A stretch of DNA of 64,000 bases from an uncultured delta proteobacterium (GCA_963790365.1 CAWBOU010000052.1:13339-77338); one strand, 5' to 3'; positions 1,458 to 64,000 are shown, numbered from the stretch's first letter. Translations and numbers: made by a program. The notes: generated by a model not told the origin, from the sequence alone.

Positions 1458-1804
1458 GTCGATCGTCCGTGAGCGCGGAGGAACGAAAGCTTGTCCCAAT
1501 AGCCGCGCTGAAAAATGATCTCGTCATCGCGCACATGGAAGAAGCCGCAGCCACGCAGGCCGAGGGGGTCGCGCCACTCAAGCATCGCCCACTCGCCGTC
1601 CTCGAAGAGGTTCTCGACGATGCAGACCATCTCCGCGGCGGCGAATCCGGCGGCGAACATTTCGCGGATCGCGGCGCGCCCGCGAACGGGCTCTTCCGCG
1701 ACCTGATGATTCACGGCGTCTTCTGCGTAGAAGGCGGCGAGCGCGTCGACGTCGCGCCGGTTGAACGCGGCGACCCAGGCTTCGACGATCTGCTTCGGTG
1801 TCAT
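1454..1804 (-). CDS. SnoaL-like / NTF2-fold protein
   Basis: 116 aa. N-terminus IVEAWVAAFNRRDVDALAAFYAEDAV is typical of SnoaL-like polyketide-cyclase-fold proteins. Confidence 0.7.
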   Translation of the reverse strand: MTPKQIVEAWVAAFNRRDVDALAAFYAEDAVNHQVAEEPVRGRAAIREMFAAGFAAAEMVCIVENLFEDGEWAMLEWRDPLGLRGCGFFHVRDDEIIFQRGYWDKLSFLRAHGRST

Positions 1805-1808
1805 CGCT

Positions 1809-3134
1809 TCAGCTCGCCGCGTAGAGACGCCATTCCCCCGGCACGCCCTTCAGCGCGTGGCTGCCGCGGTCGGCGAACTCGAGGCCCGAGCCGGTGACCA
1901 GATCGCGCACGGTGCTCGACACGAGGATCTCGCCGGCGCCGGCGAGCGAGACGATCCGCGCCCCGACGTGAACCGCGATCCCGCCGATCTTGTCCCCGGC
2001 CATCTCGCACTCGCCGGCGTGAATGCCGGTTCGTACCTCGAGCCCGAGCGCGCGCACGGCGCGGCGGATCTCGGCAGCGCAGCGGATCGCCCGCGCGGGC
2101 CCGTCGAACGTGACGAAGAAGCCGTCGCCGGCGGTGTCGATCTCGCGCCCGCGGAGACGGCCGACCTCGCGCCGGACGGCGCCGTAGTAGCGATCGAGGA
2201 GGCCGAGCCACTCGCGATCGCCCATCGCGGCCGCGCGCTCCGTCGAGCCGACGATGTCGGTGAACAGCACGGTCGCGAGCACGCGGTCGACCTCGGGCCC
2301 ACGGCGCGAGCCGGTGAGAAACTCCTCGACCGTGTCGAGGATCTCGTCGGCGTGCTCGGTCGCGAGCGTGCCGTCACGCCCGGGAATTTCCACGAACCGC
2401 GCGTCCGGAACGTGCTCGGCGATGTAGCGGCCGTGGGCGACTTCGCTCATCGCGTACGCGCTTCGCTGCAGCACGAGCGTCGGGCAACGGATCGCCGGCA
2501 GCAGGCTGCGCATGTCGAGGAGATGCGACATCGGCAGGTAGCTCGCGAGCTCGCGTGGGCGCGCCGCCGCACGCTGGTACCGCGCGAACCAGCGGCGGAA
2601 CTCGGGATCGTCCGATTTGCTCGGCGCGAGCAGCTCGACACTTTCCTCGCGTCCCCAGAGCTCGCCGAGCCGGTTCATCATCGCCTCGATCTCGGCAGTC
2701 GTGAGGCCGATCGGATAGTCGTCCGCCACCGCGTAGCGCGCCGTCGTGTTCGCGAGGACGAGCGCGCGAATCCGCTCGGGATGCGTCGCCGCGTAGAAGA
2801 GGGCCGGGGGTGCCGCATCGGCCCAGGCGAACACCGCGGCCTGCGTGGAGCCGACGGCGTCGAGCACCGCGCCGAGATCGTCGGCCTCGTCTTCCCACGT
2901 CGGCAGCGGCTCGAGCGGGATCGGGTCCGAGGCGCCGCACCCGCGCGGGTCGAGGAGGATCAGGCGGCTGAAGGAGGCGAGGCGATGGAGGAAGCGCGCG
3001 TGGAGCGGATCGCCCCAGCGGACGTCGACGTGAGAGAGCGTCCCGGTCAGGAGCACGAGGTCGGGACCATCGCCGACGACCTGATACGCGATGCGATCCG
3101 CGCCGAGCTCCGCGAATTTCGTCACGCCACCCAC
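1809..3134 (-). CDS. alpha/beta-hydrolase domain fused to class III adenylate/guanylate cyclase domain
   Basis: 441 aa. The N-terminal half is an alpha/beta-hydrolase fold. The C-terminal half has VLFTDIVGSTE...DTAGDGFFVTFDGP...GIHAGE cyclase catalytic motifs. Confidence 0.85.
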   Translation of the reverse strand: MGGVTKFAELGADRIAYQVVGDGPDLVLLTGTLSHVDVRWGDPLHARFLHRLASFSRLILLDPRGCGASDPIPLEPLPTWEDEADDLGAVLDAVGSTQAAVFAWADAAPPALFYAATHPERIRALVLANTTARYAVADDYPIGLTTAEIEAMMNRLGELWGREESVELLAPSKSDDPEFRRWFARYQRAAARPRELASYLPMSHLLDMRSLLPAIRCPTLVLQRSAYAMSEVAHGRYIAEHVPDARFVEIPGRDGTLATEHADEILDTVEEFLTGSRRGPEVDRVLATVLFTDIVGSTERAAAMGDREWLGLLDRYYGAVRREVGRLRGREIDTAGDGFFVTFDGPARAIRCAAEIRRAVRALGLEVRTGIHAGECEMAGDKIGGIAVHVGARIVSLAGAGEILVSSTVRDLVTGSGLEFADRGSHALKGVPGEWRLYAAS

Positions 3135-3167
3135 GACCGTAACGGATCGCGCGCGCGTCCAGCTCCG

Positions 3168-3602
3168 TCAAGGGGAGAGGACGGCGACGAGGAACACGAG
3201 AAACGCCGCGGTGCTCGCGATCGTGCGCACCGCGTGAAGGTTCGCCCACTGGGCGAGCAGCTCGCGGGCCTCGGCCGATCGCGGGTCGAGCGTCGGGTCC
3301 TTCAGCCGATCGTTCGTCGGCAGGATCGCGAACAGCGTGAAGGGAATGACGAACGCGAGGAGGGCGCCGCCGACGAGCCAATGGAGGCCGGCGGCGCTCC
3401 ACCAAGCCCAGAACGCCGCGAGCGAGCCGACGACGGCGAGCGACGCCTGCATCGGCGCGGCGCGCGTGTACATCGGCCGAAAGTACTGAACCGCGATCTC
3501 CGGCCCGAGAGCGAGCACCGCGGGCTGCTGCACGGCGCTGATGTAGATCGCCGCCCCGGCGAACACACCGGAGCTGGCGATGGCGACGAATTCGGCGATC
3601 AC
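3168..3602 (-). CDS. DUF1772 (anthrone-oxygenase-like) membrane protein
   Basis: 144 aa with 4 hydrophobic segments. Layout is typical of DUF1772 (recognised from memory, not searched). Confidence 0.6.
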   Translation of the reverse strand: MIAEFVAIASSGVFAGAAIYISAVQQPAVLALGPEIAVQYFRPMYTRAAPMQASLAVVGSLAAFWAWWSAAGLHWLVGGALLAFVIPFTLFAILPTNDRLKDPTLDPRSAEARELLAQWANLHAVRTIASTAAFLVFLVAVLSP

Positions 3603-10980: not shown

Positions 10981-13047
10981 CTACTGGAGCGCGACGCCCG
11001 AGGCGCGGCGCTCGAACATCCTGGCGACGGCGCGCGCGATCTCGTCGATCGCCTCCTCGGGCGGGTTGCCGCGCGGGTGGATCCCGCAGATCGCGGTCGT
11101 CGCCGAGTGGTCGAGCCCGCCGCTCCAGCGGGAGCGACCGTCGGCGTCGCGGCCCCACGTGAGATACGCCGAGAGCGTGTTCCACCCCGTGCCGGGCCGC
11201 TCCCCGATGAAGTGAAGGACGGCGTCGACGTCGAGGACCTCGCCGACGTGATAGCCGGCGCGAACGCGGCCGTTCGTGACGACGATCTCCGCGCTCGCCG
11301 CTTCGCCGAGCCGCGCGCGGAGCGGCGGCAACAGCGAACGCAGATTCTCGTTCACCGCGTCCGCATTGAGCCCGTCGGAGACGATGATCTGGAGGCGCGG
11401 GCGCTGCGCCGGGTGGAGGGCGACGATGCGCGCGACGTCCGCGTCACGAATCCGCTCGCCGGATGGCGGGTGCGCGAGGAAATCGTCGCGGCTGGCGGCG
11501 AGCGTCCGCACCCGGAGAGCGCGCGGCGCGGCGTCGCGGAGGACCGTCGCGTCGATCTCGGCGTAGAGCGCGTGCCGCGCATTCGCATGGATCGCTTCGA
11601 TCCTCCGGCGGATCTCGGGCGGATCCGCTTCCGCGGTGCCGGGGCCGAAGCCGAGATCGAAGCCGCGCTCGGCGAGCGCGGCGATCCGGCGCGCGCCTTC
11701 CGCGCGGAGCGCTTCTTCTCCTCGCGCGTCGCCGCCGGCCTTTCGGTAGCGCGCGTAGAGCGCGGCCGTCGCATCCGCGGCGCCGTCGCCCGCGCCAAGC
11801 GCCTGGAGCCGGCGCTCCATCGCCGTCGTCATCCGCCGGCCGGTGAGGCGGCGGAGCCGCAAATGCTCGCGGAACGACGTCGTCAGATAGCCGAGCATCG
11901 GGTCCGCATTCCCCGCCACCGCCATCAAGTACGCGGGCGCGGCGCGCTCGGTGATGTCCGCCGTCAGCGCCTGGAGCTCCGCAGGCGCGATCCCCATGTG
12001 GAACGTCGAGCAGACGTCGAGGCCCATCGTGAGCCCGTGGAGCTTCGCCATCACCACGTCCTCGAGGCACGCGCGACGGAGCTGCTCCCCCGTGCGGAAG
12101 ACCTCGGGCCCGATGAAGCCCGCGACGTCGTTGACGATCGTCCACTTGCCGCCGCAGCGGCGCCGGATCGCGCGCGCCGCGCCATAGGTGCGCGCTTCGA
12201 GCGTCGTCATGTCGACGCCCTCGGCCGCTCCGTTCGTCACCTCCGAGCCCTGACCGGTCTCGAAGTAGAGACCGTCGAAGCCGGCGGCGAGGTCGGCGAT
12301 CCCGTCGACGTCGAGCCCGACCATGCCCCCGAGCGAGCGCGACGTGCCGGCGAGGCTCTGGAAGCCGACGTCGACGCGGGTCCGGGAGCGCGCGCTCGCC
12401 TGCTTGACGATGTCCGAGAGCACGCAGGTGCGCGTCGGTAGCTCGAGCCGCTCCACTACGGACATCAAGAGATTTTCCAAACGGACAATCGTCTCGAGGT
12501 CGTCGCTCGCGGGGTTCAAGCCGAGGATCACGTCGCCGCAGCCGTGCGCGAGGCCTTCGAGGATCGAAAAGAGGATCTCCTCCTCGTCGTCGCCCGGGCT
12601 GTTCGGCTGGATGCGAGAGCCGAAGTGCGCGGCGGAGCCGATCGCGATCCCGGGCCCGCTCGCGGGCAGCGCATGGAAAAGGCGCCGCGAGATCGCCGAG
12701 AGCTCCGCGTCGCTCGAGATCTTCGCGACCGCCGCGGTGACCTCGCTGCGGAGCGAAGGGGCGTGGCGCGCGACCCAGTCGGGCGCCGCGTCCGAGAGCA
12801 GAATCGCGCGGACGTCGGCGACGGTGTGCGACGCAATCTCGGCTGCGCGCGCGCGATCGACGGAATGGGCGATCGCTTCGGTGACACCGTCGTCGACGAA
12901 CGCATGGCGCGCGATCGCGCCGAGGGTCGTGGCGGCGAGCTCGGCGCGCGCTTCCTGACGGACGTCGTCGTCCGTCGTGCCGCCGATCGAGAGATCGCCT
13001 TCTTTGAACGCGCTCGCGAGAGCGAACGTTCGGCCGAGCTCGCTCAC
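10981..13047 (-). CDS. ethanolamine ammonia-lyase-like, fused large (EutB-like) and small (EutC-like) parts
   Basis: 688 aa. The N-terminal ~450 aa are EutB-like (...NADPMLGYLTTSFREH...). The C-terminal ~230 aa are EutC-like (IVSDGLNADAV...GRVRAGYHVGE...FIGERPG). Confidence 0.7.
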   Translation of the reverse strand: MSELGRTFALASAFKEGDLSIGGTTDDDVRQEARAELAATTLGAIARHAFVDDGVTEAIAHSVDRARAAEIASHTVADVRAILLSDAAPDWVARHAPSLRSEVTAAVAKISSDAELSAISRRLFHALPASGPGIAIGSAAHFGSRIQPNSPGDDEEEILFSILEGLAHGCGDVILGLNPASDDLETIVRLENLLMSVVERLELPTRTCVLSDIVKQASARSRTRVDVGFQSLAGTSRSLGGMVGLDVDGIADLAAGFDGLYFETGQGSEVTNGAAEGVDMTTLEARTYGAARAIRRRCGGKWTIVNDVAGFIGPEVFRTGEQLRRACLEDVVMAKLHGLTMGLDVCSTFHMGIAPAELQALTADITERAAPAYLMAVAGNADPMLGYLTTSFREHLRLRRLTGRRMTTAMERRLQALGAGDGAADATAALYARYRKAGGDARGEEALRAEGARRIAALAERGFDLGFGPGTAEADPPEIRRRIEAIHANARHALYAEIDATVLRDAAPRALRVRTLAASRDDFLAHPPSGERIRDADVARIVALHPAQRPRLQIIVSDGLNADAVNENLRSLLPPLRARLGEAASAEIVVTNGRVRAGYHVGEVLDVDAVLHFIGERPGTGWNTLSAYLTWGRDADGRSRWSGGLDHSATTAICGIHPRGNPPEEAIDEIARAVARMFERRASGVALQ

Positions 13048-19565: not shown

Positions 19566-20057
19566 ATGGCGCCCTCGACGACCGGGTGTGGCTGTCCCCC
19601 GACCGCGCCGTCCGCGATCGCGGCGACGGGAGCGGTCCACCACGTCTTCCTGACCGTCAACGATCTCGCGCGCTCACGCGCGTTCTACGCGGCGTTGATG
19701 CCGCGGCTCGGGTATCCGCGCGCGTTCGACTACGGTGCGGTGCTCGGCTGGGGCAGCGACGTGAACAGCTTCTGGCTGAAGGCCGCGACGCCCGACCACA
19801 CGGGCGCGACGTTCTCGAAGGACCGCGTCGGCCTCGCCGAGGTCGCGTTCCGCGCCGAGAGCCGCGCGCAGATCGACGCCCTCGCGGCGGACGTCGAAAA
19901 AATGGGCGGCACGATTCTCGATGCGCCCCGCGAGTATCCCGAGTACATGCCGGAGTACTATGCCGTGTTCTTCGCCGACCCCGACGGCATCAAGTTGGAG
20001 CTCGTGCACATTCCGAGCGCGACTACTCACCCCCCGGGCTTTCGCCCGACCCCCTGA
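19566..20057 (+). CDS. VOC (glyoxalase/dioxygenase) family protein
   Basis: HHVFLTVNDLARSRAFY...YYAVFFADPDGIKLELV. The last 10 codons and the TGA stop are supplied by repeat copy 1. Confidence 0.7.
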   Translation: MAPSTTGCGCPPTAPSAIAATGAVHHVFLTVNDLARSRAFYAALMPRLGYPRAFDYGAVLGWGSDVNSFWLKAATPDHTGATFSKDRVGLAEVAFRAESRAQIDALAADVEKMGGTILDAPREYPEYMPEYYAVFFADPDGIKLELVHIPSATTHPPGFRPTP

Positions 20058-20064
20058 GGGGGTG
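20026..20064 (+). repeat. ~40-nt hairpin repeat, copy 1 (CTCACCCC..CGGGCTTTCGCCCGACCCCCTGAGGGGGT)
   Basis: One of three near-identical same-orientation copies; the others are at 32592 and 37380. Confidence 0.85.
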
Positions 20065-32559: not shown

Positions 32560-32591
32560 TTCTGGCGACGGCGCCATCGGCGGCACGATTT

Positions 32592-32630
32592 CTCACCCCT
32601 CGGGCTTTCGCCCGACCCCCTGAGGGGGTA
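32592..32630 (+). repeat. ~40-nt hairpin repeat, copy 2
   Basis: ctcacccctcgggctttcgcccgaccccctgagggggta, 33 nt downstream of the LLM stop. Confidence 0.85.
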
Positions 32631-34068: not shown

Positions 34069-35590
34069 ATGGAGGACAGAGATTTGGCAACGAGCGACTT
34101 TCCGATCGTGATCATCGGCACCGGCTTCTCCGGCATCGCCATGGGCGTGCACCTCAAGCAGGCCGGCATCGATTCCTTCACCATCCTCGAGAAGGCCGAC
34201 GACATCGGCGGCACCTGGCGCGAGAACACCTACCCGGGCGCGGCCTGCGACGTGCCGTCCCATCTCTACTCCTTCTCGTTCGAGCCGAAGACCGACTGGA
34301 CGTACTCGTACTCGCCGCAGGAGGAGATCAAGGGCTACCTCCGGCACTGCGTCGAGAAGTACGACCTCGCCCGGCACATCCGCTTCGCGAGCAAGGTCGA
34401 TCGGCGCGTCGTTCGACGAAACGGATGGCACCTGGAGGGTCAGCGTCGAAGGCCGCGAGCCGATCCTCGCGCGTGCGGTCGTGCTCGGGAACGGCGCCCT
34501 CCATATTCCCTCGATGCCCGACATCCGCGGGCTCGACGAGTTCGAGGGCGAGCTCTTCCACTCGTCGCGCTGGAACCACGACTACGATCTCGAGGGCAAG
34601 ACGGTCGCCGTCGTCGGCACGGGTGCTTCCTCGATTCAGTTCGTGCCGCGGATCGCACCGAAGGTCGCGAAGCTCCATCTCTTCCAGCGGACGCCTCCGT
34701 GGATCATGCCGAAGGCCGACCGGCCGATGAAGGGCTGGGAGAAGAAGCTCTTCTCGTGGGTGCGGCCGCTCCACTGGCTCCACCGTGCCTTCCTCTACTG
34801 GATGCACGAGGTCCGCGTGCTCGGCTTCCTCTTCGACCCGCGCATCATGAAGGCGGCGGAGAAGATCGCGAAGAAGCACTTGGCTTCGGCGATCGAGGAT
34901 TCCCAGCTCCGCGCCAAGCTCACGCCCTCCTACACGATGGGCTGCAAGCGGATCCTCATCTCCAACGACTACTACCCGGCGGTCGCGCGGCCGAACGTCG
35001 ACGTCGTCACCGACGGCATCCTCCGTGTGACGAAGAGTGGCGTCATGACGCGCGATGGGCAGGAGCGGAAGGTCGACGCGATCATCTGCGGCACCGGCTT
35101 CAGCGCGACCGCGTACTTGGCCCCGCTCGACATCTACGGCCGCAGCGGCCGGAAGCTGAACGACGTGATCCAGGAGAAGCCCGATTCGTATCTCGGCATC
35201 ACCGTCAACGATTTCCCGAACCTCTTCCTGATGATGGGCCCGAACACCGGCCTCGGACACAACTCGATGGTGTTCATGATCGAGGCGCAGGCGCGCTACG
35301 CGCTGAAGGCCATCAAGGCGCTCCGCCGGAACAAGCTCTCCTTCATCGACGTGCGCGAGGACGTGCAGCACGCGTTTTCCGAAGGCTTGCAGGCGCGGCT
35401 CAAGAAGCACGGTGTGGAATTCCGGCTGTCAGAGCTGGTACCTGAAGGACGGCCACAACGCGACACTCTGGCCGGGCTTCACGTTCGCCTACTGGTGGCA
35501 GACGCGGAGCGTGCGGCTCGCCGACTACGAGCTCGTGCCGGAAGAGGCACCCATCGAGCTTCCGGAGGTCGCGCCGGCGCGCGCCGCGTA
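34069..35590 (+). pseudogene. Baeyer-Villiger / flavin-containing monooxygenase, 2 frameshifts
   Basis: Contains IVIIGTGFSGI, DIGGTWRENTYPGAACD and VVGTGASSIQ. Frame changes near 34400 and 35412. The tail WNSGCQSWYLKDGHNATLWPGFTF is in a third frame. Confidence 0.75.
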
Positions 35591-36068: not shown

Positions 36069-36096
36069 CTCGTCGTTCTCCTCTCCGCGAGTCTTG

Positions 36097-36141
36097 ATGA
36101 AGGGGACAGATCTATCCACTGAATAGATCCGTCCCCTTCAT
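36097..36141. repeat. 45-nt hairpin repeat, copy 1 (19-bp stem, 1 mismatch, loop CCACTGA)
   Basis: atgaaggggacagatctat-ccactga-atagatccgtccccttcat. A second copy is at 49565. Confidence 0.85.
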
Positions 36142-36191
36142 TGCGAAAGATCGCGCTTGACAGGTCGGCGGTCGCACCGAGAAATCGCCGG

Positions 36192-44093: not shown

Positions 44094-45831
44094 ATGCCTG
44101 CGTACGACCTGATCGTGAAGGACGGCATGGTCGTCGACGGTACCGGCGTCGCAGCCGCTACCGCGCCGACGTCGGCATCCGCGACGGGCGCATCGCCGCC
44201 GATCGGGCGCCTGAAGACGTCGGACGGCGCGGCGCGTGCTCGACGCGAGCGGCATGATCGTCGCGCCCGGCTTCGTCGACCTCCACACGCACTACGACGC
44301 GCAGCTCTTCTGGGACCCGTACCTGACGCTCTCCGGCTGGCACGGCGTCACGTCGGTCGTGATCGGCAACTGCGGCTTCGGCTTCGCGCCGATGCGTCCG
44401 GAGATGCGCGAGCGCGCGATGCTGACGATGACGCGCGTCGAGGCGATCCCGTACGAGTCGATGCGGCGCGGCCTGCCCTGGGACTGGGTCACGTATCCCC
44501 GAGTTCCTCGACAGCGTCGATCGGCAGCCGAAGGCCGTGAACGTGCTGCCGTACGTGCCGATCGCGCCGCTGCTCGTCTGGGTGCTGGGCTTCGAGCGCG
44601 CCAAGGCGGGCGAGCTGCCGACCGACGCCGAGCACGCCGAGCTTCGCCGACTCCTCCACGAGTCGATGGACGCGGGCGGCTGCGGCTGGTCGGCGCAGCG
44701 GCTTCATCCCGACGGACCGGGCGCGGTGCAGCGCGACTACGACGGCGGCCCGATGGTCACCGACGTGATGCACGACGAGACGGCGCTCGCAGTTCGCCGA
44801 GGTGCTCGCCGAGCGCAACGAGGGCTTCATGCAGATGGCGCTCGCGACCGCCGACGGCGCGCACGACTTCCAGCACATCGAGGAGCTCGCCGCGCGTAAG
44901 CGGGCGACCGCTCCTCTACAACGTCGTGCAGTCGTTCGTCCGGCTCCCCGAGGCGCACCGCACGCTGATCGCGTGGCTCGATCGTGCCGGCAGCGCGGCA
45001 TCCGCGTGTACGGCCAGGGCGTCACGACGACGGCGGCGTTCACCTTCACGTTCGAGGACTGGAACCTCTTCGACGACGATCCAGCCTGGCTCGACGCCAC
45101 GCTCGGCACGCACGGAGGAGCGGAAGGCGAAGCTCGGCGATCCCGGCACGCCGCGCAGCGCCTGCGCGCAATACGACTCCGGCATCGTCACCGCCTGCAT
45201 CGCGGACATCGTCGATCCTCGACGCGTTCACGCCCGCGACGAAGCCCTTCGAGAACATGACGATCTCGCGAGATCGCCGACGAAGACCGGCAAGCATCCG
45301 GTCGACGCGATGCTCGACGTCGCCGTCGCCGACGACCTGCGGACGGTCTTCTACGCCGAGCCGGCGAACGTGAATCGCGACTCGCTCCGCGAGATCATCG
45401 ACTACCCCTGGATCCTGCCCGGCGTGTCCGACGGCGGCGCGCACACGAAGTTCTTCACCGGCGGCCGCTACCCGACCGAGTTCATCTCGCCGCATCGTCC
45501 GCGAGGAGAGCATGTGCTCGCTCGAGCACGCGCACTGGCGGCTCTCCGCGCTGCCCGCGCACTGCGCGGGCTTCCAGGATCGCGGCACGCTCGCCGAAGG
45601 CGCGGCGGCGGACCTCGTCGTCTACGACTACGAGAATCTCGCGATGCCTGCCCGTCCGAGGTCGCGCACGACTATCCCGGGCGGCGAGTGGCGCCGCATC
45701 CAGCGCGCGCAAGCGGCTATCGCTTCGTCGTCGTGAACGGCGAGGTGACGATCGAGGAGGACCGTGAGACCGGCGTCCATTCCGGGCGCCTCTTGCGACA
45801 CGGCGCCGCGGGCCGGAAAAAGACTTCGTAA
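44094..45831 (+). pseudogene. N-acyl-D-amino-acid deacylase (D-aminoacylase) family amidohydrolase, many frameshifts
   Basis: YDLIVKDGMVVDGTG; ADVGIRDGRIAAI; APGFVDLHTHYDAQLFWDP...GVTSVVIGNCGFGFAP; later conserved blocks are scattered over three frames. Confidence 0.7.
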
Positions 45832-49555: not shown

Positions 49556-49564
49556 AAATTTGAG

Positions 49565-49605
49565 GAAGGGGACAGATTTATTCACTGAATAGATCTGTCC
49601 CCTTC
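49565..49605. repeat. 45-nt hairpin repeat, copy 2
   Basis: gaaggggacagatttat-tcactga-atagatctgtccccttc, between convergent genes. Same orientation as copy 1. Confidence 0.85.
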
Positions 49606-49641
49606 GTTTGAAGACGGTCGTCGCCGGGGACCGCTCGGGAC

Positions 49642-50153: not shown

Positions 50154-52377
50154 ATGGAAGAGACCGTCAGCTACCGCACGTGCCCCCTCTGCGAAGCCAC
50201 CTGTGGGCTCGAGATCCGCGCCCGCGGGCGCGAGGTCGTATCGATCCGCGGCGACGAGGAAGACGTCTTCAGCAAGGGCTTCCTCTGTCCCAAGGCCTAC
50301 GCGCTGAAGGAGCTCGATGCGGACCCCGACCGCCTGCGGACGCCGCTCGTCCGCAAGAACGGCAAGCTCGAGCCCGCGACGTGGGACGAGGCGTTCGAGC
50401 TGATCGAGAAGCGGTATGGCGAGATCGTCGCCGCGCACGGGCGTGACGCCGTCGCCGTCTTCCTCGGCAACCCGAGCGCGCACGTGCTCGCGCTCGGCTT
50501 CTACAACCAGGTCTTCCTCCGCGCGCTCGGCACGCGGAACATCTACTCCGCCTCGACCGTCGATCAGATGCCGAAGCAGGTCTCCGGCGGGCTCATGTTC
50601 GGCACGGTCATCTCGTTCCCCGTGCCGGACCTCGATCGCGCGAAGTACGTGATGATGCTCGGCGCGAACCCGTTCGAGTCGAACGGCAGCTTGATGACCT
50701 CGCCGGACGTTCCCGGGAAGCTCAAGGACATCGTGAAGCGCGGTGGGAAGGTCGTCGTGGTGGATCCGCGGCGGACGCGGACGGCGGAGCACGCGACCGA
50801 GTACGTCGCCCTGCGCCCCGGCACCGATGCGCTCTTCCTCGCGGCGATCCTGAACGTGCTGTTCGAAGAAGGGCTCGCGAATCCCGGCGCGATGGCGGCG
50901 CACGTCGCCGGCCTCGAGGACGTGCGCGCATTCGTGCGTGACTTCACTCCGGAGCGCGTGGCGGAACGCTGCGCGGTTGAAGCAAAAGTCATCCGCCGGC
51001 TCGCGCGCGAGCTCGCGTCGGCCGACCCGTCCGTCGTCTACGGTCGCATCGGCACGACGACGCAGGAGTTCGGCACGCTCGCGAGCTGGCTCGTCGACGT
51101 CGTCAACGTGCTGACGGGAAGCCTCGATCGGCCGGGCGGACCGATGTTCCCGAAGCCCGCGTCGGGCGGTCCGAACACGCGGGGCACGCCGGGCAAAGGG
51201 AAGGGCGTTCGCTTCGGCCGCCGGCGGAGCCGTGTGCGCGACGTGCCGGAGGTCTACGGCGAGCTCCCGTGCGCGTGTCTCGCCGAGGAGATCGAGACGC
51301 CGGGCGACGGCCAGATCCGCGCGCTCTTCACGGTCTCCGGAAACCCCGTGCTCTCGACGCCGAACGGCGCGCGCCTCGCGAAGGCGCTCGACACGCTCGA
51401 ATTCATGGTTTCGCTCGACATCTACGTGAACGAGACGGCGAGCCACGCGGACGTCGTGCTGCCCGGTCTCTCCGCGCTCGAGCAGTCGCACTACGATCTC
51501 TTCCTCCGCCAGTTCGCGGTGCGGAACGTCGCGACGTATTCGCCGGCGATGTTCGCGATGCCCGAGGGGCAGCAGGAGGAATGGAAGTCGCTGCTGCGGC
51601 TGACCGCCATCATCACCGGCCAGGGTGCGAATGCCGATCTCGAAGCGCTCGACGACTTCGTGGCCGCGCAGGTCGCCGAGTCGGCCGCTCGCGCTGCCGG
51701 GCGGAGTCGCCGAAGACATCCTCGGCGCGGTCGCGCCGCGGCGCGGACCGGAGCGGCTCCTCGACATCGCGCTCCGGAGCGGACCCTACGGAGACAACTT
51801 CGATCCCGCGAAGGAGGGCCTCTCGCTCGCCGTGCTCGAGAAGAACCCGCACGGTATCGATCTCGGCCCGCTCGAGCCGCGGATTCCGGAAGTGTTGCGG
51901 ACGCCGTCGGGGAAGATCGAGCTCGCGCCCGCGGAGCTGGTCGCGGATGGCGAGCGTCTGCGCGCGGCGCTGGACCGCGACGCGGATGCGATGGTGCTGA
52001 TCGGCCGGCGCGATCTCCGCTCCAACAACTCGTGGATGCACAACCTGAACGTGCTCGTGAAAGGAAACGAGCGCTGTACGCTGCAGGTCTCGCCGGCGGA
52101 CGCCGAGCGTCTCGGGCTCGCGGACGGCGGGCGCGCGCGGGTGGCCTCACGGGTCGGCGCGGTCGAAGTGCCGGTCGAGGTTACGGACCGCGTGATGCCC
52201 GGTGTCGTCAGCTTGCCGCACGGCTGGGGACACGACGCCGAGGAAGCGCGCATGACGATCGCCGCGGCACACGCCGGCGTGAACTCGAACCGGCTCGCCG
52301 ACGAGCTCGCGCTCGATCCGCTCTCGGGCAACGCGATCCTCAACGGGATTCCGGTGAAGGTCGAAGCCACGGCCTGA
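50154..52377 (+). pseudogene. molybdopterin oxidoreductase family protein, one frameshift near 51690
   Basis: N-terminal 4Fe-4S motif CPLCEATCGL. MopB-type body. The C-terminal segment from ...GGVAEDILGAV to VSLPHGWGH...NGIPVKVEA is in another frame (ORF 51625..52377). Confidence 0.75.
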
Positions 52378-58546: not shown

Positions 58547-59634
58547 ATGGACATCGGCGTCTTCATGATGCCTTCGCACCCGCCGGAGCGGCCGCTCCGC
58601 GAAGGCTACGAGTGGGATCTCCGTCATCTCGAGCTCTGTGACCGCCTCGGCTTCTCGGAGGCGTGGATCGGCGAGCACTTCACCTCGCCGTGGGAGCCGA
58701 ATCCCGCGCCCGGATCTCCTGATCGCGCAGGCGCTGCTTCGCACGCGCACGATGAAGCTCGCGCCCGGCGCGCATCTGCTTCCGTTCCATCATCCCGCCG
58801 AGCTCGCGCATCGTGTCGCCTTCCTCGATCACATGGCCGAGGGGCGGTTCATGTTCGGCGTCGGCTCGAGCGGGCTTCCGAGCGACTGGCGGCTGTTCAA
58901 CGTCGACGGGATGAAGGGCGACAACCGCAAGATGACTCGCGAGGCGCTCGACATCATCCTCCGCCTCTGGGGCGACGACGAGCCGTTCGAGTATCGCGGC
59001 GAGTACTGGAGCGTGAACAGCATGGAGCCGATGTTCGACTTCCTGAATCGGTATCTGAAGCCGTTCCAGAAGCCGCATCCGCCGATCGGCATCGCCGGGC
59101 TCTCGCCGAACTCGGACACGCTCGTGATCGCGGGCGAGCGCGGGTTCATGCCGATGAGCCTCAACATCAACGCCGCGTACCTCGCGAGCCACTGGGCGTC
59201 GGTCGAGAAGGGCGCCGAGTCGGTCGGTCGCACGCCGAATCGCGCGATTGGAAGCTCGTCCGCGAGGTCTACGTCGCCGAGACTGATCGCGAGGCGCGCC
59301 GCAAAGCGATCGAGGGACCGATCGGGCGCGCCTATCGCGAGTACCTGCTGCCGCTCTTCGGTAACTTCGGCTTCCTCGGTCTTTTCAAGCATGATCCGGC
59401 GGTGCCGGACTCCGACGTCTCGCCGGAGTATATCTGTGAGTATGGCGGTTGGCTCGTCGGCTCGCCGTCGACGGTGCGCCAGCGTCTCGCGGACATGGAA
59501 GGCGACGCTGGCGGATTCGGCACGCTCCTCGTTCTGACGTTCGATCACCTGGACGACGACGAGGGCTGGGCCGCGTCGCAACGGCTGATGATCGAGGAAG
59601 TCATGCCGCACTTCCGAGATCGCAAGGCGCTTGA
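58547..59634 (+). pseudogene. LLM class flavin-dependent oxidoreductase with two compensating frameshifts (3' end uncertain)
   Basis: MDIGVFMM...LGFSEAWIGEHF is in frame 1. DLLIAQALL...GRFMFGVGSSG...HPPIGIAG...RTPNRA is in the ORF 58638 frame. It returns to frame 1 at DWKLVREVYVAETDREA...VMPHFRDRKA. As read, frame 1 runs on to 59776 with a non-native-looking tail. Confidence 0.7.
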
Positions 59635-59768
59635 GCGCGCGCCGCAAAGGGAGCCCTCAAAGGGCGCTGGGTCGTGGCCGGCATCCTCGGGATCGGTCTG
59701 TCCGCGCTCGCGATCCTGTGGTTCGTCTCCCTCCGGTTCCACTCGGGTCGGGGCGGTGGGTGATCTCC

Positions 59769-61147
59769 ATGGCTGATCCACTTCTCGACCTCGAACGGAA
59801 GATCGCGACCGGCGAAGCGATCGTCGGCGTGATCGGGCTCGGCTACGTCGGGTTGCCGCTCTCCTGCACGATCGTCGAGCGCGGGATCCGCGCGATCGGC
59901 TTCGACGTCGACTCGACGAAGATCGGCAGCTCGCGCGCGGCGAGACCTACATTCGCCACATCCCCGGAGAGCGGTTGGCGAAGATCGTCGTCCCGGGGCG
60001 GACTCCCGCCGCGCTCGCGGCGGCGCGCGAGCCCGGCTTCGTGCCGACCGCGGACTTCGACGAGCTCCGCCTCTGCGACGCGATCGTCATCTGCGTGCCG
60101 ACGCCGCTCACCGAGGGGCGCGAGCCCGACTCTCGGCGTCGTCATCGGCACCGCGGAGCGATCGCGACGCGGCTCCGCGCCGGGCAGCTCGTGGTGCTCG
60201 AGAGCACGACCTATCCCGGGAACGACCGACGAGGTCGTGCTGCCGATCCTCGAGGAGAGCGGTCTGCGGCGTCGGCCACGATTTCTTTCTCGCGTTCTCG
60301 CCCGGAGCGCGAGGACCCGGGCGATCCGACGCCACGTCACGCGCAAGATCCCGAAGGTCGTCGGCGGCGTCGACGCCGCGCTGCGGCGAGATCGCGGCGG
60401 CGCTCTACGGCGCAGATCGTCGAGCGCGTCGTGCCGGTCTCGAGCGCGCGCGTGCCGAGATCGGCAAGCTCCTGGAGAACACCTTCCGCGGCGTCAACAT
60501 CGCGCTCGTGAACGAGCTCAAGATGCTGTTCGAGCGCATGGGCATCGACGTCTGGGAGGTGATCGACGCCGCGGCGACGCAAGCCGTTCGGCTTCATGCC
60601 GTTCTACCCGGGCCCGGGCCTCGGCGGCCACTGCATCCCGATCGATCCGTTCTACCTCACCTGGAAGGCGCGCCAGTACGACTTCGACCACGCGGTTCAT
60701 CGAGCTCGCCGGCGAGATCAACACGGCGATGCCGTACTGCGTGGTGGAGCGAGATCGTCGCCGCGCTCGACGACGCACGGCAAGCCGCTCAAGGGCGCCG
60801 AGATCCTCGTGCTCGGCGTCGCGTACAAGAAGGACGTCGACGATCTGCGCGAGTCGCCCGCGCTGAAGCTGATCGAGATCCTCGAGGCGCGCGGCGCGCG
60901 CGTGGCATATCACGACCCGTACGTGCCGACGCTCCGGACGCGGCGCCTGCGCCGGTACGACGTGCTCGAGCTCGACTCCCTGCCGATCGACGCCGCATCG
61001 CTCGCTCGATTCGACTGCGTCGTGGTGGCGACCGACCACTCGGCGTTCGATTGGGATGCGATCGTCGCGGCGAGCCGGCTCGTCGTGGACACGCGCAACG
61101 CGACCCGCCGTGTGACGAGGAATCGGGAGAAGATCGTCGCCGCCTGA
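59769..61147 (+). pseudogene. nucleotide-sugar dehydrogenase (UDP-glucose/GDP-mannose dehydrogenase family), left copy, multiple frameshifts
   Basis: [17 protein letters not shown] motif, [42 protein letters not shown] and [18 protein letters not shown] lie in different frames. Confidence 0.75.
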
Positions 61148-61205
61148 AAGGAACGCGCGGGGGCGTTCCGTGGAAATCGCCGATCGCGCTCGGTATGGTC
61201 CGCCC

Positions 61206-61856
61206 ATGCGTCGCGCCGTTCTCGCTTGCGCAATCGCGTTGGCGCTTTTCGCCGCCTGCCTCCGCATCGCCGAACGCCCTCGGCCGTCGCGCGCCGTGAC
61301 GGAGCCCGCCGTGACGGCGGATCCCGCCCGGCTTCAGGATTTCCTGGCGACACGACGGACAGCCGGGATCGCGAAGGACCCCGAGATCCACTCCGGGGAC
61401 GTCATCCGCGTCGAGGTCGCGGACCTGGCCGAGGCGAGTCGGGAATATACGGTTTCTCGCGAAGGGACGATTCGCGTGCCCTACGCCGAGGAAGCCGAAG
61501 TCGCGGGAATGAGCGCCAAAGAAGCCGCGGCGGTATCGCACGCCAGCTCGATTCCGTCGTGATCGATCCCGATGTGAAAGTGGAATTGCGGAAAGGCGGC
61601 GGGAGCGAAGTCGTCGTCGTCGGTGCCGTCGAGCGGCCCGGCAGGGTGCCCCTCGGGATGAAGGGCAAGACGCTGCTGGAGGCGATCGCAGCGGTGGGCG
61701 GGCTCAGCGCGGACGCAACCGGCGTGATCCGGATCCTACCCGCCCCGGGGTCCTCCGGTCCGCCCGGTCTCTTCGCCGAGGGCGTTCCCGGGGCACCTCG
61801 CGAGAAGCCGCTCGAGATCGCGGCCGCTGACGTCCTGCGCGGCGGAGCGAATGGCC
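61206..61856 (+). pseudogene. Wza-like polysaccharide export lipoprotein, left copy, frameshifted and truncated at the palindrome centre
   Basis: MRRAVLACAIALALFAAC lipobox. GDVIRVEV...YTVSREGTIRVPY (Poly_export-like), then VVVVGAVERPGRVPL...TLLEAIAAVGG (SLBB-like). The reading stops making sense at 61857. Confidence 0.65.
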
Positions 61857-61857
61857 G

Positions 61858-62511
61858 GGCCATTCGCTCCGCCGCGCAGACGGCTCGACGGCCGCGATTG
61901 TCGACGGCTTCTGGGGGTGCCCCGGGAACGCCCTCGCGAAGAGACCGGGCGGACCCGGAGGAGGACGGGGCGGGTAGGGATCCGGATCACGGCGGTTGCG
62001 TCCGCGCCGCTGACCCAGCCCGCCGGTACGAGGGGGGGCAGCGTCTTGCCCTTCATCCCCGAGGGGCGCCCTCCCGGGCCGCTCGACGGCACCGACGACG
62101 ACGACTTCGCTCCCGCCGCCTTTCCGCGATTCCAGTTTCACATCGGGATGCATCACGAGACGGAATCGAGCTGGCGGTGCGACGTGGCCCGCCGCCGGCT
62201 TCTTTGGCGCTCATTCCCGCGACTTGCGCTTCCTCTGCGTAGGTCACGCGAATGGTACCCTTCACGAGAAACCGTATATTCCCGACTGGCCAACAGGTCC
62301 GCGACCTGCGACACGGATGACGTCCCCGACGATCTGAAATGCGCGATCCCGGCTGTCCGTCGTTTGGCCAGGGAACCTGAAGCCGGGCGGGATCCGCCGT
62401 CACGGCGGGCTCCGTCCCACGGCGCGACGGCCGAGGGCGTTCGGGCGATGCGGAGAGAGGCGGCGAAAAGCGCCAACGCGATTGCGCAAGCAGAACGGCG
62501 CGACGCGAGTG
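61858..62511 (-). pseudogene. Wza-like export lipoprotein, right (mirror) copy, more degraded
   Basis: Reverse complement mirrors 61206..61856. The ATG is replaced (ccc-actcg), the lipobox Cys is changed to Ser, and there are several frameshifts. Confidence 0.6.
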
Positions 62512-62560
62512 GGCGGACCATACCGAGCGCGATAGGCAATTAAGCCCCCGCGCGTTCCTT

Positions 62561-63919
62561 TCAGGCGGCGACGATCTTGTCTCGATTCGTCTTCACGCGG
62601 GCGGTCGCGTTCCGCGTGTCGACCACGAGCCGGCTCGCCGCGACGATCGCATCCGAATCGAACGCCGAGTGGTCGGTCGCGACGACGACGCAGTCGAATC
62701 GCGCGAGCGATGCCGCATCGATCGGCAGGGAATCGAGCTCGAGAACGTCGTAGCGCCGCAGGCGCCGCGTCCGGAGTGTCGACGTAGGGGTCGTGGTATG
62801 CAGCGCGCGCGCCGCGCTCCTCGAGGATCGCGATCAGCTTCAGCGCGGGCGATTCACGGAGATCGTCGACGTCCTTCTTGTACGCCACGCCGAGCACCAG
62901 GATCTCGGCGCCCGAGAGCGCCGGCCTGAGCCGAGCGCGTCGACGATCCGCTCCACCACCCGAGTACGGCATCGCCGTGTTGATCTCGCCCGCGAGCTCG
63001 ATGAACGCGTGGCGTAAGTCGTACTGCGCGCGCCTTCCAGGTCAGATAGAACGGATCGATCGGGATGCAGTGCCCGCCGAGGCCCGGGCCCGGATAGAAC
63101 GGCATGAAGCCGAACGGCTTGGTCGAGGCGGCGTCGATCACTTCCCAACGTCGATGTCCATCCGCTCGCAGAGCATCTTGAGCTCGTTCACGAGCGCGAT
63201 GTTCACGCCGCGGAAGATGTTCTCGAGGAGCTTGGCCGGCTCGGCGACGCGCGTCGACGACACCGGGACGACTCCTCGACGATCTGCCGTAGAGCGCCTG
63301 CGCGACGTCGGCGCATCCGCGGCGTGACGCCGCCGACGACCTTCGGGATCGTCTCGGTGACGTAGCGTCGATTGCCCGGGTCCTCGCGCTCCGGGCGAGA
63401 AAGCGAGGGCGAAGTCGTCGCCGGCCCGAAGACCGCTCTTCTCGAGCATCGGCCGGAGGACCTCGTCGGTCGTGCCGGGATACGTCGTGGACTCGAGCAC
63501 CACGAGCTGCCCGGCGCGGAGCGTCGCGGCGATCGCTCGCGCGGTAGTGACGGCGGCAGATCGGGCTCGCGCCCCTCGGTGAGCGGCGTCGGCACGCAGA
63601 TGACGATCGCGTCGCAGAGGCGAAGCGCGTCGAAGTCCGCGGTCGGCACGAAGCCGAGGTCGCGCGCCGGCACGAGAGCGGCGGATCCGCCCCGGGACAA
63701 CGATCTTCGCCAACCGCTCTCCGGGGACGTGGCGAATGTAGGTCTCGCCGCGCACGAGCTTGCCGATCTTCGTCGCGTCGACGTCGAAGCCGATCGCGCG
63801 GAGCCGCGCTCGGCGATCGTGCATGAGAGCGGCAAGCCGAGGTAGCCGAGCCCGATCACGCCGACGATGGCGTCGCCGGTCGCGATCTTCCGTTCGAGGT
63901 CCCGAAATGGATCGGCCAT
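62561..63919 (-). pseudogene. nucleotide-sugar dehydrogenase, right (mirror) copy, multiple frameshifts
   Basis: [31 protein letters not shown]..., [37 protein letters not shown] and [19 protein letters not shown] lie in different frames. Shift positions differ from the left copy. Confidence 0.7.
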
Positions 63920-64000
63920 GGAGGTCACCCACCGCCCCGACAAATCGAAGGGAGAAGAAGTAAGGTCGCGAGCGCCGACAGACCGATCCCGAGGATGCCC

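Follow-up and report, generated by a model that had tools for sequence, protein, structure and literature searches.

The right-hand end of a 64,000-nt stretch of DNA from an uncultured delta proteobacterium (GCA_963790365.1, CAWBOU010000052.1:13339-77338; in the following, the window) is taken up by a long inverted repeat (59679-64000), in which the tail of a small transmembrane (TM) open reading frame (ORF), a nucleotide-sugar dehydrogenase gene and the 5' part of a gene for a Wza-like polysaccharide export lipoprotein are found twice, once on each strand, and meet without a spacer inside the exporter gene. The mirror repeat is truly there in the sequence; as a feature of the genome, however, it is most likely not real. 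It would very probably be a fold-back artefact of sequencing and assembly, lying at the end, or close to the end, of a metagenome contig that was built from error-prone long reads at low coverage. The structure of the repeat, the pattern of errors, the allelic divergence between the arms and the colinear, single-copy locus of relatives are observed directly, and are described below before the alternatives are weighed. From its sequence, the host appears to be a Candidatus Binatia-like bacterium.

The repeat is apparent in the sequence itself, in a repeat search and in a global alignment, in which positions 59679-61857 (2179 nt) and the reverse complement of 61858-64000 (2143 nt) mirror each other from end to end with no spacer. 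The alignment comprises 1941 matches, 166 mismatches and 108 gap columns, i.e. 87.6% identity, which is far beyond chance; 72 of the gap columns are bases missing from the right arm and 36 are bases missing from the left, and the indel events between the arms number about 75 as compared with the 166 mismatches. Both arms have the same gene order, namely small TM ORF tail, dehydrogenase and exporter 5' part, and are joined at base 61857, the centre of the repeat, through this single base, with the two halves on opposite strands and next to nothing between them, as is typical of fold-back reads. The main claim of the initial annotation, i.e. a spacer-less inverted duplication that breaks a Wza-like gene and runs to the window edge, is thus borne out by the alignment, and so is the presence of a 45-nt palindrome inside the SLBB-like part of the exporter, which leaves neither copy complete (the SLBB_2 profile is cut at position 45 of 79). 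The same annotation had described the arms as non-identical, had counted by eye some 13 differing positions within the initial ~160 nt of the dehydrogenase, had ascribed to each arm frameshifts of its own and had noted the loss of the exporter ATG and lipobox Cys from the right arm; the mismatches and gap columns of the global alignment, a four-way alignment, the frameshift counts (14 in the left and 12 in the right dehydrogenase, one and 12 in the respective exporter fragments) and the changes of CCCATGCG to CCCACTCGCG and of TGC to TCT agree with these statements. The repeat search revealed no further long repeats elsewhere in the 64-kb window, and no remnants of Oxford Nanopore Technologies (ONT) or SMRTbell adapters were found at the junction. 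The perfection of the 45-nt centre was also considered as a sign of a recent junction, and dropped: a run of 22 perfect columns has p~0.05 at 87.6% identity (0.876^22), and perfect runs longer than the central 22 columns exist elsewhere in the arms.

Both copies of the dehydrogenase are frameshifted in the window. Once stitched, the protein has the N-terminal, central and C-terminal domains of its family (PF03721, PF00984 and PF03720 on its matches), and 99-100% of its length is covered in thousands of matches to the UDPG_MGDP_dh family. The best match (P0001) is a UDP-N-acetyl-D-glucosamine dehydrogenase of a forest-soil metagenome, with 89% identity, and the named matches are from Candidatus Binatia. 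Of the exporter, the left fragment contains Poly_export (PF02563, E=4e-11) and part of an SLBB domain (PF22461/PF10531, positions 2-45 of the 79 of the SLBB_2 profile). Both copies stop at the centre, just ahead of the conserved 'N..L..GD.I.VP' strand of homologues, and neither encodes a complete Wza-like lipoprotein, in the sense of a lipoprotein signal and Poly_export plus at least one whole SLBB, the later domains being absent. The corresponding proteins are 389 aa long in a syntenic relative and 300-343 aa long in distant homologues; in the protein database the fragment finds distant relatives only, with at most 40% identity.

The quality of the sequence varies along the window and between the arms. 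For the frameshift counts, a frameshift-aware aligner was used to align the window with proteins from L001, a short-read contig of 3.5 kb that represents the closest relative, plain tblastn being unfit for this mapping, as it merges frames at this GC content. Across the window, breaks in the phase of GC content at third codon positions (GC3) were called with a simple, home-made hidden Markov model (HMM), the strand calls of which are unreliable; phase changes alone were used, and a subset was checked with Pfam. The model finds no breaks in 1-34 kb and about nine in 34-59 kb, and can hold no frame in 59227-64000. At least four single-copy genes upstream of the repeat are broken by frameshifts (table 1); the last 209 codons of the ADH gene have none with respect to the L001 protein. 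The indel errors belong to the contig, and become denser toward the right end of the window, as in a noisy long-read assembly.

Within the repeat, 13 of the 15 frameshifts of the left arm lie in one 640-nt patch. The right arm has 24 frameshifts and nine codon gaps in about 2 kb, and its worst stretch is found directly past the turn, where the exporter fragment has 12 frameshifts and seven codon gaps versus the single frameshift of its left counterpart. The direction of the errors also differs, the right arm being deletion-biased and, on balance, shorter, and the left arm having mostly insertions. This is the behaviour reported for nanopore reads past the junction of an inverted duplicate, where accuracy drops and bases are skipped (Spealman et al. 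2020, PMC7229812): the half of the repeat that follows the turn is the less accurate one, and it misses bases. With this post-junction signature the right arm would, therefore, not be covered by ordinary reads, as would be the case for an overhang stemming from a single fold-back read or a handful of them. The inequality of the two arms in consensus quality (taken as a proxy for read support) also argues against two real copies, since equal coverage should polish them equally. Furthermore, the ratio of indels to substitutions (about 1:2 to 1:6; between the arms, about 75 to 166) fits sequencing error, and is far too high for natural decay. One +1 insertion (CC to CCC in TCTCGCCCGGAG; 60301 and 63395) occurs in both arms when these are compared with L001 and with a second related contig, L002; its cause would be a systematic homopolymer error on the two strands or else a real change that the arms share.

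Sequencing error does not explain all the differences between the arms. With L001 and L002 as outgroups, the arm-arm substitutions in the dehydrogenase are distributed as 27/34/62 over the three codon positions at clean sites (p=2e-4), and as 1/7/22 in an indel-free C-terminal block (60834-61147; p=8e-6). They are mainly G/C swaps, like the substitutions that part both arms from L001, and the encoded dehydrogenase proteins are almost identical. Because of the third-position bias, the G/C swaps and the near identity of the proteins, the dehydrogenase copies are two functional alleles under purifying selection. The same third-codon and G/C-swap bias rules out that a single molecule gave rise to the arms as its two strands, and the real allelic variation leaves no room for a recent duplication. 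The third-position divergence is 21% in the C-terminal block of the dehydrogenase, 9.5% in its N-terminal block and 7.8% in the exporter fragment by the centre, where mismatches are uniform over codon positions (14/14/17). The dehydrogenase has a rate of 16%, twice as high as the exporter fragment (Fisher p=0.003). Over the C-terminal block, L001 (22%) and the left arm (21%) are about equally close to the right arm. Such mosaic divergence fits two co-occurring, recombining strains, one of which dominates each arm. Near the centre, the arm differences are about at error level, which fits a recent technical junction on top of strain variation.

The same locus is single copy and colinear in the relatives in which it could be followed, as expected if the repeat is a fold-back product. 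On L001 the genes are ADH, the LLM/Bac_luciferase oxidoreductase, the dehydrogenase and then the beginning of the exporter; on L002 the dehydrogenase precedes an exporter gene that encodes at least 494 aa. In a third contig, judged by its gene table, which encodes P0121 (a protein that falls into one 90% cluster with the best dehydrogenase match), the order is Redoxin, GH46/PG_binding, ADH, Bac_luciferase, dehydrogenase, a complete Poly_export/SLBB protein of 389 aa and, with no change of strand, one more gene, matching the window at 55.9-61.8 kb. No inversion at the locus is seen in these three related contigs. A near-identical genome with an intact locus was not found, the closest matches reaching at most 89% for the dehydrogenase, 67% for loci of the Joint Genome Institute (JGI) and 78% for ADH of GTDB representatives, none of the latter being syntenic. 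Nor did the source contig itself turn up: two intact proteins of the window had no exact counterpart, and scans for exact 45-mers in collections of genome, metagenome and viral contigs were negative. Among relatives, the N-termini of the exporters are 38-51% identical when the dehydrogenases are 80-90% identical, which makes the exporter locus a fast-evolving, strain-variable polysaccharide locus. In L002, the Wza-like protein (1733-3214) continues past the first SLBB domain into a tail of at least 280 aa that is rich in Pro, Ala, Glu and Arg, and replaces the second SLBB domain of other homologues.

In the history that we propose, a fold-back read, i.e. one in which a strand is followed directly by its complement, would have overlapped the contig along the stretch that holds the dehydrogenase and the exporter. 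The second half of the read would have overhung the end of the physical fragment, placed inside the exporter gene, and the assembler would have extended the contig with the overhang, making the sequence turn at 61857 and return on the other strand. Polishing reads would have favoured the better left copy, leaving the overhang unpolished. The left arm would then be a consensus dominated by one strain, and the right arm one or very few unpolished reads from a co-occurring strain, with the mixture of strains giving different alleles in the two arms wherever the population is polymorphic; the arms would differ by errors and by real alleles because a consensus is set against near-raw sequence and because the strains co-occur. 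The true locus would be single copy, and would continue through the remainder of the exporter gene; a turn within the SLBB domain, ahead of a conserved strand, is what is expected of a random fragment end. The platform was most likely Nanopore, and we infer that the contig ends soon past 64000. Fold-back reads have been estimated at ~0.55-0.6% of ONT genomic DNA reads, most of them with the halves no more than 11 bp apart (Heinz, Meyerson and Li 2026, PMC12870357), and inverted-repeat reads at 0.18-7.33% in ligation libraries, microbial standards included (Xie et al. 2026, PMC13141652); at these rates they are frequent enough for the proposed history. The likeness to fold-back long-read artefacts resides in the arbitrary position of the junction and in a second half that is less accurate and misses bases; the differences are that here an assembled contig is at hand, from which the read is deduced, and that the arms also differ by real alleles, which call for mixed strains.

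Several observations weigh against this explanation. A plain fold-back of a single molecule predicts arms that differ by sequencing error only; the real allelic divergence found here makes a mixed-strain consensus necessary as an extra assumption. Neither the error-dense patch of the left arm (60134-60772) nor the +1 insertion shared at 60301 and 63395 is specifically predicted, and a fold-back does not explain in detail why frameshifts become denser along the window. The uniform distribution of mismatches over codon positions in the exporter fragment would also fit dead pseudogene fragments of a real duplication, although such fragments would be predicted to diverge more than the dehydrogenase, not less as is seen. 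Finally, the frameshift census comes from the home-made HMM, part of the calls of which were verified.

The initial annotation had named a real inverted duplication with both copies decaying, a hairpin telomere and an artefact as candidate origins. If the duplication were real, the small ORF, the dehydrogenase and the exporter 5' part would have been copied when replication folded back or switched template at the GGCC/CCGG micro-palindrome, long enough ago for the dehydrogenases to diverge under purifying selection while the exporter fragments died. This is unlikely, even if the synonymous bias of the true divergence in the dehydrogenase, the lack of codon bias among the mismatches of the exporter fragment, which is pseudogene-like, and a short self-complementary motif at the centre that could prime snap-back speak for it, and even if arms that are 12% different would no longer form a long cruciform. 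Such a duplication would begin as a perfect multi-kb palindrome, and palindromes of this kind are soon deleted or made asymmetric in bacteria, through the instability mediated by SbcCD and through remodelling of symmetric tandem inverted duplications, yet the symmetry is still exact here. Exporter fragments that evolve neutrally would be expected to match or exceed the divergence of the synonymous sites of the dehydrogenase (16-21%), but their third positions differ by only 7.8%. Moreover, with the right arm ~22% from L001 and 21% from the left arm, the duplication would predate the split from L001, yet the locus is single copy and colinear in all three related contigs (L001, L002 and that of P0121), and the unequal error load is unexpected of two equally covered copies. 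Decay of both copies, as formulated in the initial annotation, is unsupported, given that the frameshifts are error-like and also affect single-copy genes upstream, and that the substitutions in the dehydrogenase show purifying selection. Tandem inverted duplications (TIDs), as in the TID model of Salmonella and E. coli, and origin-dependent inverted-repeat amplification (ODIRA) in yeast arise by snap-back or template switching at quasi-palindromes, and are seen young and remodelled. The repeat resembles them in its short self-complementary junction motif and mirror-symmetric copies; it differs in that theirs are young, identical arms subject to fast remodelling, whereas here the arms are 12% apart, and up to 21% at third positions. 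That a Binatia-like soil bacterium might keep a palindrome of more than 4 kb with diverged arms, as a long-lived duplication that has escaped surveillance or, less likely, as the hairpin end of a linear replicon, is accordingly an improbable prospect.

A covalently closed hairpin telomere of a linear replicon, around which long reads would continue onto the other strand to give a terminal inverse duplication, is highly improbable. The repeat does run to the window edge, and real hairpin telomeres are seen as spacer-less terminal inverse duplications in Nanopore assemblies of Borrelia (10.1101/2025.07.18.665644); there, however, the arms represent the opposite strands of a single duplex, with identical variants on both sides (10.1101/2025.07.18.665644), whereas here they carry different alleles. 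The turn is not at the end of a replicon but inside an SLBB domain, in a gene of which a relative has the rest, together with a further gene, and read-through of a hairpin should give arms of symmetric quality, unlike those observed. Scanning about 30 ORFs of the window with Pfam revealed no telomere resolvase (ResT/TelK/TelN/TelA) and no plasmid or phage genes, but ordinary chromosomal genes. Compared with the hairpin telomeres of Borrelia, Agrobacterium tumefaciens and phage N15, the likeness is limited to a spacer-less inverted duplication reaching the end of the available sequence, and the differences are the distinct alleles, the turn within a conserved domain, the colinear relatives, the chromosomal context and the lack of a resolvase gene among the ORFs scanned. 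The different natural alleles and the mid-domain turn in a gene that continues in a relative contradict this candidate. We know of no hairpin-ended linear replicon in this phylum. An artefact could also have arisen with no fold-back molecule, by an inverted mis-join of two strains in a mis-resolved assembly graph or bubble, or as an inverted chimera of multiple displacement amplification (MDA), but there is little probability of either. The presence of two alleles in the arms, and of a noisy contig in a strain-variable polysaccharide locus whose exporter N-terminus is 38-51% identical to those of relatives, would suit a mis-join, yet a graph error has no reason to join strains at the same base in opposite orientation, the exact mirror being the signature of a fold-back; MDA chimeras are usually offset, with both segments from one template. 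In practice, mis-join and MDA are a sub-variant of the artefact explanation, inseparable from it at the sequence level. The artefact candidate of the initial annotation, therefore, stands as far as a fold-back or chimeric long read at a contig end is concerned, which the error pattern and the relatives support best, with an MDA chimera as a minor sub-variant. The test proposed there, by which arms becoming identical after polishing would dispose of a diverged duplication, is too simple, as real strain variation would survive the polishing of an artefact.

Table 1. Coordinates of the arms of the mirror repeat, of the genes they contain and of broken single-copy genes upstream.
Feature	Position (nt)	Strand	Remarks
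Left arm	59679..61857	+	Left limit fixed only by the right-hand window edge; consensus quality except 60134-60772
Right arm	61858..64000	-	Mirrors left arm to the window edge; 36 nt shorter; raw-read-like quality throughout
Turn-around point	61835-61879	.	Perfect 45-nt palindrome around G61857 (odd central G); core TGGCC-G-GGCCA; self-complementary GGCC/CCGG; read from sequence
Small conserved TM ORF, 3' part	59679..59763	+	Ends ...GILGIGLSALAILWFVSLRFHSGRGGG*; mirror copy from 64000 to ~63925 with 2-nt and 7-nt gaps; three-way alignment with L001
Nucleotide-sugar dehydrogenase, UDP-N-acetyl-D-glucosamine type, left copy	59769..61147	+	14 frameshifts, 11 of them +1; frameshift-aware alignment
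Dehydrogenase, right copy	62561..63919	-	12 frameshifts spread evenly, mostly -1 or -2; allele differs from left copy
Error-dense patch in left arm	60134..60772	+	Frameshift positions and four-way alignment
Wza-like exporter fragment, left copy	61206..61857	+	~217 codons; signal peptide, lipobox LFAAC, Poly_export, cut SLBB; one frameshift near 61531
Wza-like exporter fragment, right copy	61859..62508	-	12 frameshifts and 7 codon gaps in 650 nt; ATG lost; lipobox Cys replaced
LLM/Bac_luciferase oxidoreductase, single copy, just upstream	58547..59632	+	+1 at 58709, -1 at 59245; 1-nt loss removes stop; 96% identical to L001 protein
FMO-like monooxygenase, split by frameshift	34069-34410 / 34403-35509		Pfam
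Amidohydrolase, split	44495-45733		Tail in own frame 45494-45733; Pfam
Molybdopterin oxidoreductase, split by frameshift	50154-51689 / 51625-52377		Pfam

Some further features of the arms and of the rest of the window may be mentioned. The small ORF (59640-59763 in full) sits between the LLM gene and the dehydrogenase and is kept in L001 (about 1760-1858), with changes that are mostly at third positions; it is probably a real gene for a small membrane protein that is uncalled in L001. Its right copy has the L001-like 'TACTTCTTCTC' variant, and its left copy has 'TGGTTCGTCTC'. A terminator-like hairpin, GGAACGC-GCGG-GGGCGTTCC, is found 3' of the stop codon of the left dehydrogenase (61148-61175), 8 nt of which are missing from the right arm (62563-62543). 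Farther upstream, two pairs of hairpins of ~45-50 nt (36094-36142 and 49560-49608; 20017-20063 and 32583-32629), 90-91% alike, resemble repetitive extragenic palindromic (REP) elements, and may be dispersed terminator-like or REP-like elements. Two ORFs on the minus strand combine different functions: at 10981-13047 the large (EutB) and small (EutC) subunits of ethanolamine ammonia-lyase are encoded in one ORF of 688 aa, which may be a natural fusion, and at 1809-3134 an alpha/beta-hydrolase fold is found in a single ORF with an adenylate/guanylate cyclase catalytic domain.

If the repeat were real, it would represent a rare stable spacer-less palindrome, or a hairpin telomere, in an uncultured phylum. 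If, on the other hand, it is an artefact, its importance is one of data hygiene only: the contig should be trimmed at 61857, i.e. of its last 2.1 kb or more, the second dehydrogenase and the 'broken' exporter should neither be annotated as pseudogenes nor counted as paralogues, and the frameshifts across 34-64 kb should be taken as assembly errors. For metagenomes the lesson would be that diverged arms are no proof of a real duplication, as co-occurring strains can supply different alleles to the arms of a fold-back.

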